Shown: in pieces, positions 1-15,382 of the stretch
Layout of the letters: every line of letters starts with the position of its first letter
Numbering within the stretch: the stretch's first letter is position 1
NCBI RefSeq assembly: GCF_030384885.1
Contig: NZ_CP128613.1
Direction: 5' to 3' (one strand)
From: Escherichia coli
Lineage (GTDB): Bacteria; Pseudomonadota; Gammaproteobacteria; Enterobacterales; Enterobacteriaceae
DNA length: 64,000 nt
Made by a program: the position numbers and the translations under genes
Notes under the pieces: generated by a model
Told to the model about the DNA's origin: nothing
The model's input: the letters and a program-made list of their open reading frames with translations, nothing else
The model's database searches: none

Positions 1-2623
1 AAGTAAATGCCCAGTTTTCTTTTGCGGGTGCGCCAGCTTCTGTCCAGGCGGTATACAGATCCCAGCCAAAGTCAGCCAGTGATTCGCGAGTGAAGGTTTC
101 TTTGATGATCTCCAGCCCAGCGTAGGCGGTAATGTCGCGAGGAAAGCTCAGCATAGTGCCCAGGTGGCGCATAGCGTCATCTGGTAGAGGCAGGTTGTTA
201 CTTTTAAGCCGTGGTCTGCGCCATAAGGTGAACTGATAAAAGCCGGGCAGTGGGGCGATTTTTGCGGGATATTCTTCCAGAGGATCGCTATCAAATAATG
301 TTGCCAGCGCAGCTAAAACATCAGGTTGATTATATCCTTGCGCGATTTTCTCAATCGTTTCTCGCTGGTTTAATTTCACTAGCAGGCGGAGCGCCTGGCG
401 GGCATATTCCCGATTTTGGCACGGTTTGCCCAGTGCCAAAGGCAGTAGCCCGGCGGCGGCATGGCGCGGGTTATTTGCCAGCCAATTAACGGCATCCTTG
501 TAAGCCATTTTTTTCTGTAACCGCTGCGCCATTGGTAAGGCTAGTTCACTGGCCCCAATAAAGAGGGTGAATATCCACAGTCGTTGATGATCTCGTTGCA
601 AGCAGGTCATAAACGCAGGAATGGCCGTACTACCAAAAACTGCCAGAATCTCTTTCTCACCTGAATATCGCTCCTCAATGATTATTTGGTTGAGAAATGA
701 AATCGCCTGTTGTCCCGGTAAGTAACAAAGCGCAGATAAATTCCAGCTTTTGTTGGCATTGTTGTGATATTTCGCAAACTCAGCTTTTAGTGCTGGAAAA
801 TCAAAGCGCAACAAGGCATCAACAGCGCTTTGCGGTATGTATTTTTTTTCATGTAAGTCATCTTCGCAATGCAGCCATTCATTAAAACCTAATTGCCAAA
901 GGATTTGTTGTTCTGGTGTAAAAGGAATGAAAGATGTCTCCCAGCTTTCTTTTTCAATTAGTGGTAGGTCGGTAAATAAGGTTTGCTGTGATGCCTGATA
1001 TTTCGCGATTTCACTGAATCTGGATATGTCAGTGTGACTGATTAACTCTGTAATTCCTGGTGTGATATCCGTGACGGCAGGAATGGGAAGCACAGGTAAA
1101 TCAAATACGGGTATTACATTTTTCTTCTTATTTATTATCCACGGTGGAGCGACAAATAGCTGCGGCAACATATCCGCAGTGGCATACTCACATTCTTTAG
1201 CTACTGACTGAGGACGACATTCAGATAAGATGCCTGCCGCTTTAGCATTAACCCAGGGAATGACGTCAGTGACTAACTCTGGCGTGACGGTAATCAGTTT
1301 GACAAGCGCGTTGCGCCACTGTGCATCTTCATGTATTGCCAGCAAAGTAGCATAAGCGGCAATAGCCGCAGCGGGATGTTTTTGGCAGGCTTTGCTTAAG
1401 TATTCCAGGTGCTTTTTCTTGCCATTTACACCGAGGATCAGAATTTGAATCGCATCCGGGTGATTCGTTTTCCATAGCCATTTGACAAGATCTTCAGTCT
1501 CGCTGATGCGCTCGAAGAGATAAGTGGGATTGTCAGAATGCTCTTCCACAAACTCAGTAAGTATCCGGCTTACACCGCGCCCCCCATTATTTGCCAGCAA
1601 CATTGCCAGATAAGCGCGAAAATCACGATACAACGGTGGGAAGTCGTATTTTTCTGCTGTAGTCAGAGCTATATCATCGGTTACTACCAGTCTTAACCAG
1701 GTTATCGCCGGAACGTTTTGGTCTGCATAATGTAGCGCCATAGCATTGGCAATATCCGGGCGTTCAGGGAGCAGTAACGCGGCAAAAGGTTGCCGTGCTG
1801 GGGATAGCGTCGGAATAGCAGTAAGCACTTTATCCACACAGCGTTGCCACTCATCTTCTGAAGCGAGTGAAAGATGATGACATAGACGTTGATGCCAACT
1901 CGGTAGCGATTCTGCTTCGTGATTAGGTGGAATGATGGTGGTTACTGCGCCTTTTACTGGTTTATATTTGAGTTGAAGAGCGAGAAGGGCGATTTCAACG
2001 GCACTTTCCAGACCACAGCGAATGACTAAGTCATCGACCAGTTCATCTTGAGAGTAAGAGTTCCAAAAGCCCCAGAGCAATGCTGCATCAGATTGCGCAC
2101 TCCCTGTCGGTTGATTACCCTGAACTCGCATTTGTAACTCAGCAAAAGCCTGCTGCCAGTTTTCTGGATAAGAGCGGTAATTATTGTCGGGGTCATATGC
2201 CCTGGTGTTATTCGCGATGCGCTTCCATATTTGACCATCTTTGTGCAGATAATTGATATCTCTGGGGCGAGAGCGATGTGGAAAAGCAAATCGGTTAATA
2301 TCGTCGGTTAGCGGAATGACTGCATCATCAGCCAGCCATGGGCGTTTGTTTTTACTCTCGGGTGAAGTTTCAACGTCAGGAGTGACTTTGGTGACGGGGG
2401 GGATATGCACGTTTGCCGAAGCGTCTTCCACATAGCCTTTTTTCGTTTTCTCAGCGATAAGCTTCAGTTCCGCTTTTTCCGCCGCCGCAGCATCCGCAAA
2501 GCTTTTTATCTGGCTTTGCCCTTGGGTGCCAACTTTTCCCCAACTGATATGCAACTCGTTACCTTGCTGCCCCACCGCCCAGAATTTATGCGATTTTTCG
2601 TCCTGGTAGATATAACTCTTCAT
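1..2623 (-). CDS. molR: MolR-like large WGR-domain protein, N-terminal ~874 codons; gene continues past the window edge
   Basis: Manual reverse-complement translation from ATG at 2623 gives MKSYIYQDEKSHKFWAVGQQGNELHISWGKVGTQGQ (WGR-type motif). No complete minus-strand ORF is listed in the track for this frame, consistent with an open frame running to position 1. Position downstream of metG matches K-12 molR. Confidence 0.65.
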   Translation of the reverse strand, partial: MKSYIYQDEKSHKFWAVGQQGNELHISWGKVGTQGQSQIKSFADAAAAEKAELKLIAEKTKKGYVEDASANVHIPPVTKVTPDVETSPESKNKRPWLADDAVIPLTDDINRFAFPHRSRPRDINYLHKDGQIWKRIANNTRAYDPDNNYRSYPENWQQAFAELQMRVQGNQPTGSAQSDAALLWGFWNSYSQDELVDDLVIRCGLESAVEIALLALQLKYKPVKGAVTTIIPPNHEAESLPSWHQRLCHHLSLASEDEWQRCVDKVLTAIPTLSPARQPFAALLLPERPDIANAMALHYADQNVPAITWLRLVVTDDIALTTAEKYDFPPLYRDFRAYLAMLLANNGGRGVSRILTEFVEEHSDNPTYLFERISETEDLVKWLWKTNHPDAIQILILGVNGKKKHLEYLSKACQKHPAAAIAAYATLLAIHEDAQWRNALVKLITVTPELVTDVIPWVNAKAAGILSECRPQSVAKECEYATADMLPQLFVAPPWIINKKKNVIPVFDLPVLPIPAVTDITPGITELISHTDISRFSEIAKYQASQQTLFTDLPLIEKESWETSFIPFTPEQQILWQLGFNEWLHCEDDLHEKKYIPQSAVDALLRFDFPALKAEFAKYHNNANKSWNLSALCYLPGQQAISFLNQIIIEERYSGEKEILAVFGSTAIPAFMTCLQRDHQRLWIFTLFIGASELALPMAQRLQKKMAYKDAVNWLANNPRHAAAGLLPLALGKPCQNREYARQALRLLVKLNQRETIEKIAQGYNQPDVLAALATLFDSDPLEEYPAKIAPLPGFYQFTLWRRPRLKSNNLPLPDDAMRHLGTMLSFPRDITAYAGLEIIKETFTRESLADFGWDLYTAWTEAGAPAKENWAFT

Positions 2624-11778: not shown

Positions 11779-11805
11779 CACCTCATGATGAGGGGGCTTT
11801 TTTTA
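11779..11805. terminator. putative bidirectional terminator between yehA and rcnB
   Basis: Short palindrome cctca-tga-tgagg followed by gggcttttttt, between convergent genes. Confidence 0.4.
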
Positions 11806-12141
11806 GCGATGATAAAAAATCTCACCATCGTAGGCTTTAATGATTTTACCGTCGGTGTCGCTGATCAACACGTACGCGCCACCCATATAGGTCCAGTGCG
11901 TCCCGGCATCAGGCGCGGGCAGGTTACGTAACTGCCACTGCTTAATGTTGTACTCATCGGTGCGGTACATCTCTGGGACGGTATCGCCTGGTTTGAAATG
12001 CTTAAAGTCAGCAATGAAACTGCTTAACTCATACTTAGAAATTCCCGAGGTATTGGTCGAACCCGCGGTGGCTGGTGCGGCCCAGGCGGCACTGGTAACC
12101 AGCAAAAGCACACCCAGCAACATCTTATTTTTAATGGTCAT
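11803..12141 (-). CDS. rcnB: periplasmic nickel/cobalt homeostasis protein RcnB (YohN)
   Basis: Track ORF 11803..12321; start moved to internal MTIKNKMLLGVLLLVTSAAWA (signal peptide), giving 112 aa. Confidence 0.8.
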   Translation of the reverse strand: MTIKNKMLLGVLLLVTSAAWAAPATAGSTNTSGISKYELSSFIADFKHFKPGDTVPEMYRTDEYNIKQWQLRNLPAPDAGTHWTYMGGAYVLISDTDGKIIKAYDGEIFYHR

Positions 12142-12359: not shown

Positions 12360-13181
12360 TTATCGTATTATGCCCATAAAGCCATGTACGCCCATATACA
12401 CACCAACTAAGCCAATCAACAGACTGGAAAAATAGGGGGCGCGTTTAGCGAGAGTGTTAAATCCGCTCCAGCGTTTTGCGACCTGCTGAACGCTGATTGC
12501 TGCGCCAATGCCTACGGTGACCAGCGTTAACGCAAGGCCAATGCTGAAACTGACGACCAGTGTTGCGCCCAGTGTCAGGGCTTTCAACTGAATGCAAATC
12601 AACAGCACGGTAATTGCTGCCGGGCAGGGGATAAGGCCACCGGTTAAGCCAAATAACAAAATTTGCCAGTTGGTGACCTCTCTACCATCGAAGCGTCGTT
12701 TAATGTCATTGGCATGGGCTCGTGCATGAGCATCCTGATACTCCCCATGTTCGTGATGGTGATGATGTCCATGGTCGTGGTGATCTTCGTGATCGTGATG
12801 ATACTCATGATCATGCCCGTGCATATTCTCCAGCCAGTTGCGTTCGCCGCGCCAGGTACGCCAGAACATCCAGAACGCGGTGCCAATAATGATCACCGCG
12901 GAAATCAACTGGAGCCACGGTTCTGCAGATTGAGCAGTAAAACGTTTGCTGATCACCATCCCGCCAAAGGCAATCAACCAGACCACCGCGGTATGCGAAA
13001 TGGTTGCTGCCAGTCCGAGCATCACCGCCTGTTTAATGGTGCCTTTGATGGCGATGATAAACGCCGCCATCATCGTTTTTGAGTGCCCTGGTTCCAGGCC
13101 ATGAAGCGCACCAAGTAAGATGGCGCTGGGGATGAAGAACCAGGCATTTCCTTGCTGAAGAAGAGTGGTAAATTCGGTCAT
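12360..13181 (-). CDS. rcnA: nickel/cobalt efflux transporter RcnA
   Basis: 273-aa membrane protein with a His-rich loop (HGHDHEYHHDHEDHHDHGHHHHHEHGEY). Confidence 0.9.
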   Translation of the reverse strand: MTEFTTLLQQGNAWFFIPSAILLGALHGLEPGHSKTMMAAFIIAIKGTIKQAVMLGLAATISHTAVVWLIAFGGMVISKRFTAQSAEPWLQLISAVIIIGTAFWMFWRTWRGERNWLENMHGHDHEYHHDHEDHHDHGHHHHHEHGEYQDAHARAHANDIKRRFDGREVTNWQILLFGLTGGLIPCPAAITVLLICIQLKALTLGATLVVSFSIGLALTLVTVGIGAAISVQQVAKRWSGFNTLAKRAPYFSSLLIGLVGVYMGVHGFMGIIR

Positions 13182-13218
13182 GATAATAATTCTTAGTATT
13201 AATTCGGCAATCCGATTC

Positions 13219-13253
13219 TACTCCCCCCCAGTACCTGATACTACCCCCCAGTA
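13219..13253. promoter_or_regulatory. two RcnR operator sites in the rcnR-rcnA divergent promoter
   Basis: Directly seen: TACT-C7-AGTA at 13219..13233 and TACT-A-C6-AGTA at 13239..13253, matching the TACT-G6-N-AGTA operator on the other strand. Confidence 0.8.
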
Positions 13254-13301
13254 GAATAATAGTGCTATGATTTTTCATGTTCTTGTTAACCAGGTGTTGC
13301 C

Positions 13302-13574
13302 ATGTCTCATACAATCCGTGATAAACAGAAACTGAAAGCGCGTGCCAGTAAGATTCAGGGTCAGGTCGTGGCGCTCAAGAAAATGCTCGACGAGCCGCAC
13401 GAATGCGCAGCTGTTCTACAACAGATTGCTGCTATCCGTGGCGCGGTAAACGGCCTGATGCGCGAAGTGATTAAGGGGCATCTGACGGAACACATCGTTC
13501 ACCAGGGGGATGAGCTAAAACGTGAAGAAGATCTGGATGTCGTTCTGAAGGTGTTGGATTCATATATCAAATAA
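13302..13574 (+). CDS. rcnR: Ni/Co-responsive repressor RcnR (CsoR/RcnR family)
   Basis: 90 aa; divergent from rcnA; operator sites in the shared intergenic region. Confidence 0.9.
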
Positions 13575-13664: not shown

Positions 13665-13790
13665 ACCAAACGACTCGGGGTGCCCTTCTGCGTGAAGGCT
13701 GAGAAATACCCGTATCACCTGATCTGGATAATGCCAGCGTAGGGAAGTCACAGACCACCAGGTCATTGCTTCTTCACGTTATGGCAGGAG
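13665..13790 (+). ncRNA. TPP (thi-box) riboswitch in the thiM 5' leader
   Basis: Leader contains GGGGUGCCCUUCUGCGUGAAGGCUGAGAAAUACCCGUAUCACCUGAUCUGGAUAAUGCCAGCGUAGGGAAGUC immediately upstream of the thiM RBS/ATG; matches the classic thiM aptamer I recall. Confidence 0.88.
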
Positions 13791-13796
13791 CAAACT

Positions 13797-14585
13797 ATGC
13801 AAGTCGACCTGCTGAGTTCCGCGCAATCAGCGCACGCGTTAAACCTCTTTTACCAACACTCTCCTCTTGTGCATTGCATGACCAATGATGTGGTGCAAAC
13901 CTTTACTGCCAATACTTTACTGGTGCTCGGTGCATCGCCAGCGATGGTTATCGAAGCAGAAGAGGCCAGTCAGTTTGCGGCTATCGCCAGTGCCTTGCTA
14001 ATTAACGTCGGCACGCTGACGCAGCCACGCGCACAGGCAATGCGTGCTGCCGTTGAACAGGCAACACACTCCCAAACGCCCTGGACGCTTGATCCGGTCG
14101 CGGTTGGCGCACTCGATTATCGTCGCCATTTTTGTCATGAACTTTTATCTTTTAAACCGGCAGCGATACGTGGTAATGCTTCGGAAATCATGGCATTAGC
14201 TGGCGTTGCTAATGGTGGACGGGGAGTGGACACCACTGACGCCGCGGCTAACGCGATACCTGCTGCACAAACACTGGCACGGGAAACTGGCGCAATCGTC
14301 GTGGTCACTGGCGAGGTGGATTATATTACCGATGGTCGTCGCACCGTTGGCATTCACGGCGGCGATCCGTTAATGACCAAAGTGGTAGGAACTGGCTGTG
14401 CATTATCGGCGGTTGTCGCTGCCTGTTGTGCGTTACCAGGTGATACGCTGGAAAATGTCGCATCTGCCTGTCACTGGATGAAACAAGCCGGAGAACGCGC
14501 CGTCGCCAGAAGTGAAGGGCCTGGCAGTTTTGTTCCCCATTTTCTTGATGCGCTCTGGCAATTGACGCAGGAGGTGCAGGCATGA
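13797..14585 (+). CDS. thiM: hydroxyethylthiazole kinase
   Basis: 262 aa; preceded by the TPP riboswitch; overlaps thiD start by 4 nt. Confidence 0.92.
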
Positions 14586-15382
14586 AACGAATTAACGCTC
14601 TGACGATTGCCGGTACTGATCCGAGCGGTGGCGCAGGGATTCAGGCCGATCTTAAAACCTTCTCGGCACTTGGCGCTTATGGTTGCTCAGTTATTACTGC
14701 ACTGGTGGCGCAAAATACCCGTGGCGTACAGTCGGTGTATCGCATTGAGCCTGATTTTGTCGCCGCCCAGCTCGATTCGGTGTTCACTGATGTGCGAATC
14801 GACACCACTAAAATCGGTATGTTGGCGGAAACCGATATTGTTGAAGCGGTGGCAGAACGGTTGCAACGTTATCAGATCCAAAACGTGGTACTCGACACCG
14901 TTATGCTGGCAAAAAGCGGCGACCCTCTGCTTTCACCTTCGGCGGTTGCCACGCTGCGCAGTCGATTATTGCCACAGGTTTCATTAATAACGCCAAACTT
15001 GCCCGAAGCTGCCGCCTTGCTCGACGCGCCACACGCGCGCAACGAACAGGAAATGCTGGAACAAGGGCGATCGCTGTTGGCGATGGGTTGTGGCGCAGTG
15101 CTAATGAAAGGTGGTCATCTGGATGATGAGCAAAGCCCGGACTGGCTGTTTACCCGAGAGGGGGAACAACGGTTTACTGCACCGCGCATTATGACCAAAA
15201 ACACCCACGGCACTGGTTGTACGCTCTCTGCGGCGTTGGCTGCACTACGCCCGCGCCATACAAACTGGGCTGACACCGTACAGGAGGCAAAAAGCTGGCT
15301 TTCATCGGCGTTAGCCCAGGCCGACACGCTGGAAGTTGGCGACGGTATTGGTCCGGTTCACCACTTCCACGCCTGGTGGTGA
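14582..15382 (+). CDS. thiD: hydroxymethylpyrimidine / phosphomethylpyrimidine kinase
   Basis: 266 aa, ribokinase-like fold; translationally coupled to thiM. Confidence 0.92.

Follow-up and report, generated by a model that had tools for sequence, protein, structure and literature searches.

An intact rcnR/rcnA-rcnB nickel-cobalt efflux module in Escherichia coli with a rare RcnA loop allele, and length variation of its operator tracts and RcnA loop among strains

The 64-kb stretch of Escherichia coli DNA analyzed here (64,000 nucleotides, referred to as the window) contains a divergently transcribed pair of genes, rcnA and rcnR, together with rcnB. The leftwards-transcribed rcnA (12360–13181, minus strand) is an open reading frame of 822 bp encoding a putative Ni(II)/Co(II) efflux protein of 273 residues, an activity taken from the literature, and downstream of it is rcnB (11803–12141, minus strand), which encodes a 112-residue periplasmic accessory protein of the efflux system (PF11776, 67.8 bits). 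The control region between rcnA and rcnR is exactly 120 bp long (13182–13301), and on its other side rcnR (13302–13574, plus strand) is transcribed divergently from rcnA and encodes the 90-residue Ni(II)/Co(II)-responsive repressor. The family assignments of RcnA, RcnR and RcnB are unambiguous; RcnA scores 553.4 bits against NF007454 (cut-off 195) and 235.1 bits against the Pfam NicO family PF03824 (cut-off 27.7), and RcnR scores 197.3 bits against the RcnR equivalog NF011613 (cut-off 138) and 75.8 bits against PF02583 (CsoR/RcnR, DUF156). The gene order is that of K-12 (yehA, rcnB, rcnA, rcnR, thiM), and rcnA is annotated in strain 2013C-4282, which is 100% identical to this part of the window and in which rcnB, rcnA and rcnR carry the same gene names. 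The first-pass annotation, with a range (12360–13301) that takes in rcnA and the spacer but not rcnR, had recognized a divergent rcnR-rcnA control region of 120 bp, and the spacer coordinates, the profile matches and the synteny all agree with it. No evidence contradicting the rcnR-rcnA-rcnB identification was found in this analysis, and the locus is almost certainly the nickel-cobalt efflux module rcnR / rcnA-rcnB in its canonical E. coli form, intact and already known as a system.

Beyond rcnR there is a TPP riboswitch (RF00059, 71.5 bits; 13666–13762, plus strand) ahead of thiM (13797–14585) and thiD (14582–15382); it is ordinary, and the same as in K-12. The junction between rcnR and thiM is strain-variable and looks like an insertion hot spot. 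For example, in O157 strains and strain 100117 rcnR is followed directly by a gene for an 'outer membrane protein' (WP_000735648.1) and by a hypothetical gene, and in strain A10 a tyrosine recombinase follows the TPP riboswitch.

The K-12 counterpart (rcnR-rcnA-rcnB, b2105–b2107) has the same genes in the same order and orientation, and has been studied extensively enough to be covered by several reports (Rodrigue 2005; Iwig 2006/2009; Blaha 2011; Bleriot 2011, all cited by PMC7055735). Approximately 3% of the nucleotides differ overall between the window and K-12. RcnR is nonetheless 100% identical despite nine nucleotide differences in its gene, every one of which is silent, RcnB differs by one residue, and RcnA is 98% identical, with one His codon fewer, the substitutions H127Y and H133D, and three conservative changes outside the loop described below. 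The region encompassing rcnA and rcnR (12360–13574) is at least 99% identical in only 3 of 5,369 E. coli genomes and 96–97% identical in most, and the RcnR protein (WP_000019944.1) is common to nearly every genome inspected, reflecting high silent divergence and a strong constraint on the repressor. The locus is thus a textbook metal-efflux switch in intact form, in which the window carries a rare but ordinary allele of the RcnA loop.

The 120 bp spacer contains two exact matches to the RcnR operator in tandem. The rcnA-proximal site (TACT-G7-AGTA; 13219–13233, minus strand) has its G7 tract at 13223–13229, and the rcnR-proximal site (TACT-G6-T-AGTA; 13239–13253, minus strand) has its G6 tract at 13244–13249; the two are 20 bp apart, start to start. 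On the rcnA-sense strand the order is TACTGGGGGGTAGTA, then TCAGG, then TACTGGGGGGGAGTA, and the corresponding plus-strand letters are TACTCCCCCCCAGTA at 13219–13233 and TACTACCCCCCAGTA at 13239–13253. When the 64-kb window is scanned with the pattern TACTGGGGGGNAGTA, allowing at most one mismatch, these are the only two matches, and there are none in shuffled controls (n=100; chance expectation 0). The published RcnR site is TACT-G6-N-AGTA, with two copies in the rcnA-rcnR spacer (PMC7055735 and PMC3902906, citing Iwig & Chivers 2009). An earlier description of the pair as two TACT-(C6/7)-AGTA operators holds in that both sites are present, but the shorthand is slightly loose, as TACT and C6 are separated by an A in the second site; this additional plus-strand A is the N of the published consensus. 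The K-12 spacer is of equal length and differs at three positions, none of which is inside the 41-nt operator core, and the core is therefore identical in the two. An Rfam scan of the spacer gave no RNA family. Type 1 operators of the CsoR/RcnR (DUF156) family, such as that of FrmR, have a C6 tract flanked by a T/A-rich inverted repeat, and the G/C tract is thought to give an A-form-like shape read-out (PMC3902906, PMC5016687). The rcnA-rcnR spacer differs in having two such sites in tandem at the 20 bp spacing, with the particular TACT/AGTA half-sites of RcnR.

A scan of one genome per species identified the tandem operator in 91 species of the Enterobacterales, Vibrio, Shewanella and Chromobacterium. 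The arrangement is exactly G6T, a 5–6 nt spacer and G7 at 76 of the 91 loci, and the G6T form is kept at 84. The other site is G7 in most species, always on the rcnA side, with G6 at four loci and G8 at two, and across species there is strong conservation of the canonical 7 nt separating TACT from AGTA. Ninety of the loci could be oriented, and both genes were found at 77 of these; in every one of the 77 the G7 site has an RcnA homologue downstream and the G6T site has an RcnR homologue divergently upstream. At the other 13, this arrangement was seen for just one gene of the pair. We note that the locus of one species (L097) has three tandem sites.

A perfect 8-nt inverted repeat, ATTCTACT at 13215–13222 and AGTAGAAT at 13250–13257, brackets the tandem operator, such that the outer AGTA half-sites each run into an outward-pointing TAGAAT that is a good match to a -10 element. 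These hexamers, each overlapping an outer AGTA, are the candidate -10 elements of the rcnA promoter (13215–13220, minus strand) and the rcnR promoter (13252–13257, plus strand). The rcnR-side hexamer is TAGATT in K-12, and it is the spacer SNP changing this to TAGAAT that completes the inverted repeat in the window; the change could slightly strengthen the putative rcnR promoter. The TAGAAT elements have poor -35 hexamers and for this reason were not called in a sigma-70 scan, and a literature search gave nothing usable on where transcription of rcnA and rcnR starts. A promoter called by the prediction tool (TTGCCG-16-TATTAT; 13210–13183, minus strand) was rejected, as it ends 2 nt before the rcnA ATG and cannot serve the annotated start. 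Across the species' loci, the rcnA-side hexamer (counted from the TA of the outer AGTA) fits TAnnnT at 88 of 90, and the G7 site ends within a tight range 34–37 nt ahead of the rcnA start codon; the rcnR-side hexamer is less conserved than the rcnA-side one. These cross-species data support our inference that a -10 element overlaps the operator on the rcnA side.

All of the RcnR residues that act as Ni/Co ligands (Ser2, His3, Cys35, His60 and His64) are present at these positions in the window protein. The N-terminal ligands (Ser2/N-terminus and His3) were reportedly described by Iwig in 2008 and Higgins in 2012. The Cys35/His60/His64 motif of RcnR is named in PMC5016687. Because both the repressor and the operator core are identical to those of K-12, the published mechanism should apply unchanged, and from this identity we infer that RcnR would bind the spacer and be released by metal. 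As the literature describes it, an apo-RcnR tetramer (of the CsoR/RcnR family) would occupy each of the two TACT-G6-N-AGTA sites, which lie between, and overlap, the putative outward-facing -10 elements (AGTAGAAT in both directions), and this occupancy would block transcription of both rcnA-rcnB and rcnR. Binding of Ni(II) or Co(II) to RcnR through the N-terminal amine, His3, Cys35, His60 and His64 would release the DNA, again according to the literature, after which RcnA (a NicO membrane protein with a central His-rich loop) and RcnB would be made and would lower cellular Ni and Co.

The lengths of the operator tracts are variable among E. coli genomes. The exact canonical 41-nt core (G6T + G7) is present in 4836 of 5357 records (90%). 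The rcnA-side tract is G8 in about 100 genomes and G6 in about 125, and the rcnR-side tract is G7 in about 29 and G5 in about 21; a one-base tract change is thus present in ~5% of genomes and is four to five times commoner at the longer, rcnA-side tract. The remaining non-canonical cores have substitutions or small deletions, examples being AGTA to AGCA in an O157:H7 strain, SNPs in the spacer, and a 3-bp deletion in L3Cip3. Several genomes labelled O121:H19 from different submitters have the rcnA-side G8, several labelled O111 (including strain 11128), also from different submitters, have the rcnA-side G6, and G8 is on at least two flanking haplotypes, as A10 and 200177 differ at a nearby SNP. 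This clonal sharing and the multiple haplotypes indicate that many of the tract variants are real. The G6 form is also in DTU-1, which has a K-12-like RcnA loop, and in ER2683, which we take to be a laboratory derivative of K-12, and its presence in such K-12-like assemblies suggests that sequencing error at the homopolymer may account for some of the tract variants. Errors classically arise in homopolymers and low-complexity repeats, and it could be argued that the operator variants, as well as the 273-residue length of RcnA, are artefacts of assembly or sequencing that carry no biological information. We regard this as very improbable, as different groups sequencing the same clone have found the tract variants in many of its members, and the RcnA loop provides further evidence against it (see below).

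A second possibility is that the G tracts, and especially the G7 tract beside rcnA, are a mutational tuning knob or weak contingency locus, in which gain or loss of a single G shifts the half-site spacing, and presumably also the promoter spacer length, giving lineages with heritably different basal or induced rcnA expression. Several of the observations are in keeping with this. About 225 genomes have G6 or G8 at the rcnA-side site and about 50 have a changed G6 tract on the rcnR side, and slippage is expected to be more frequent in longer tracts; the O111 and O121:H19 clonal groups have fixed variants, G8 has different flanking haplotypes in A10 and 200177, and the same one-base variants are sporadic elsewhere (four with G6 and two with G8 among the 91 species' loci). 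However, classical phase-variable promoters have tracts much longer than G7, the exact canonical form in 90% of E. coli and ~84% of other species looks like purifying selection against the variants and not like use of them, and sequencing error may contribute to the signal, and a tuning role therefore seems unlikely to us. It is similarly doubtful that G7 is a recurrent one-base slippage site at which the G6 and G8 forms (of O111 and O121:H19) measurably change RcnR repression or promoter strength. If tract variants did alter repression, basal nickel/cobalt efflux would not be the same in serogroups such as O111 and O121:H19, and with the variable His-rich loop this would mean that Ni/Co efflux is tuned by simple-sequence mutation between E. 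coli lineages. The tract pattern across species appears to fit better with recurrent mutation opposed by selection than with a switch that is in use.

Phase-variable promoters with homopolymeric tracts in the spacer are found in Neisseria and Haemophilus. The rcnA-rcnR spacer is like these in having a G/C homopolymer between promoter elements and one-base length changes in natural isolates, but unlike them its tracts are only 6–7 bases long, and the variants are rare (~5%) and look clonally fixed rather than switching. To our knowledge, there is no ON/OFF behaviour associated with the rcnA-rcnR operator tract. One by-product of the analysis is thus that ~5% of complete genomes have a one-base change in an operator G tract, with such changes being rare from Escherichia to Vibrio, Shewanella and Chromobacterium, and the clonal G6/G8 polymorphism of the rcnA-proximal tract is the only lead of some value, albeit a minor one.

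Two other observations concern the tract and the core. The only other G7 tract in the window (2396–2402) is inside a gene with a DUF4132 domain, and its 42-nt haplotype is in just six complete genomes, most of them strains that also have the rcnA allele of the window. Plasmid records account for eight of the operator-core matches, and copies of the rcnR-rcnA control region are thus also present on plasmids.

The length-variable part of rcnA is a His/Asp/Glu-rich loop core at codons 121–147 (12741–12821, minus strand). Residues 121–147 are HGHDHEYHHDHEDHHDHGHHHHHEHGE, with 15 His, 4 Asp and 4 Glu among the 27 residues, and this count bears out the long His/Asp/Glu-rich loop in RcnA reported in the first-pass annotation. 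The core is within a hydrophilic stretch (residues ~108–172, 17 His) that has hydrophobic segments on both sides and is thus a central loop. A positive-inside argument (8 Lys/Arg in the loop) predicts that it is on the cytoplasmic side, as does a published DeepTMHMM prediction quoted in PMC11247825.

The first-pass annotation had RcnA as one residue shorter than in K-12, and it is: the gene and product are 822 bp and 273 aa in the window and 825 bp and 274 aa in MG1655. DNA alignment places the missing codon at the junction GAG|TAT (codons 126/127; 12801–12806, minus strand), where K-12 has GAG CAT CAT CAT CAC and the window has GAG TAT CAT CAC. One CAT of the CAT-CAT-CAT run is absent, the H127Y substitution directly follows the gap, and H133D is further on in the loop. 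Replication slippage within this short run could account for the lost CAT. The exact 63-nt sequence spanning the junction is present in 27 of about 5,400 complete genomes (~0.5%), derived from cattle, poultry, dog, monkey, pig and human sources on several continents, and the variety of hosts and places indicates that this is a real, inherited and rare allele rather than an assembly error. Although the K-12-like G6 assemblies and a likely artefactual A5 to A4 frameshift in the rcnA of one genome lend the artefact explanation some substance, it is largely refuted by the available sequences as far as the loop is concerned: the 27 genomes are independent, coming from different hosts, countries and laboratories, the codon change is in frame, and so is every loop variant sampled.

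Loop length among strains was surveyed by searching the loop and its 100-bp flanks against 5,426 complete E. coli genomes, from which a systematic sample of 59 full-length rows was taken. RcnA has the K-12 length of 274 aa in 51 of these (~86%). Two rows have 283 aa, and two have a +18-nt span corresponding to 279 or 278 aa (the two that were fetched are one of each); lengths of 282, 269 and 267 aa are represented by one row apiece, as is the 273 aa form, for which the row is the window's own source strain. About 12.5% of all the genomes are in identity bands indicating indels of at least four residues. The fetched examples add an RcnA of 291 aa, and have loop cores of 21–45 residues with 12–24 His. 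The in-frame lengths are therefore 267, 269, 273, 274, 278, 279, 282, 283 and 291 aa, and this population table of RcnA loop lengths, with an overall range of at least 267–291 aa, is another by-product of the analysis.

In several lineages the loop includes perfect hexanucleotide arrays. There are (GACCAC)4, (GACCAC)6 and (GACCAC)10 arrays, coding for Asp-His, in O157 and O157:H7 strains, and (CACGAG)4 and (CACGAG)5 arrays, coding for His-Glu, in STLIN_13 and DSM 101139. These (GACCAC)n and (CACGAG)n repeats drive much of the loop length variation, and the RcnA loop is in effect a microsatellite/minisatellite within coding sequence, with expansion and contraction in frame. The window's loop is different in this respect, and Tandem Repeats Finder (TRF) reports an imperfect 18-bp periodicity at 12747–12812 (73% matches) and no perfect array. 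The loop and operator tract lengths are not identical in all strains, as both vary, and the first-pass suggestion that these tracts are prone to slippage is upheld to the extent that loop and G-tract lengths differ between strains; it fares less well for the window itself, where the loop has no long perfect repeat. As it has none, the window's own loop allele is probably stable compared with the O157:H7 arrays, and slippage would seem to be a better explanation of the population pattern than a predictor of instability in this allele.

Variation in the length of the RcnA loop is already known, as a typing marker in Salmonella and Klebsiella. [quoted passage not shown] In Klebsiella pneumoniae, a CATGGT repeat in rcnA is MLVA locus 27 (PMC3948817), and expansion of the loop has been described in cable bacteria (PMC11247825). 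STTR5 and locus 27 are in the same protein loop, and both are in-frame hexanucleotides coding for His-Asp or His-Gly pairs. The (GACCAC)4–10 repeats of E. coli O157:H7 are the same kind of array as STTR5, but most E. coli, including the window, are unlike STTR5 in having no long perfect array, and a single length (274 aa) dominates. The window's loop is not an STTR5-type locus, as it has no perfect hexanucleotide array with a copy number that varies between isolates, and its difference from the 274 aa form is one trinucleotide, not a hexanucleotide unit. With regard to a possible E. coli MLVA locus in rcnA, a literature search combining yohM, MLVA and O157 returned only Salmonella work, and the paper describing CVN014 gives no gene location. 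A match to 'rcnA' in a DNA-repair review was discarded as an unrelated abbreviation.

There are also a few genomes in which rcnA is disrupted or lost. In MS20675, an IS1-associated deletion extends from yehB into rcnR, with loss of rcnA and part of rcnR, and in 81EVA, rcnA is interrupted by an IS3 element. In 1506D011, rcnA is annotated as frameshifted by a change from A5 to A4 in a run near codon 34, which is possibly an assembly error.
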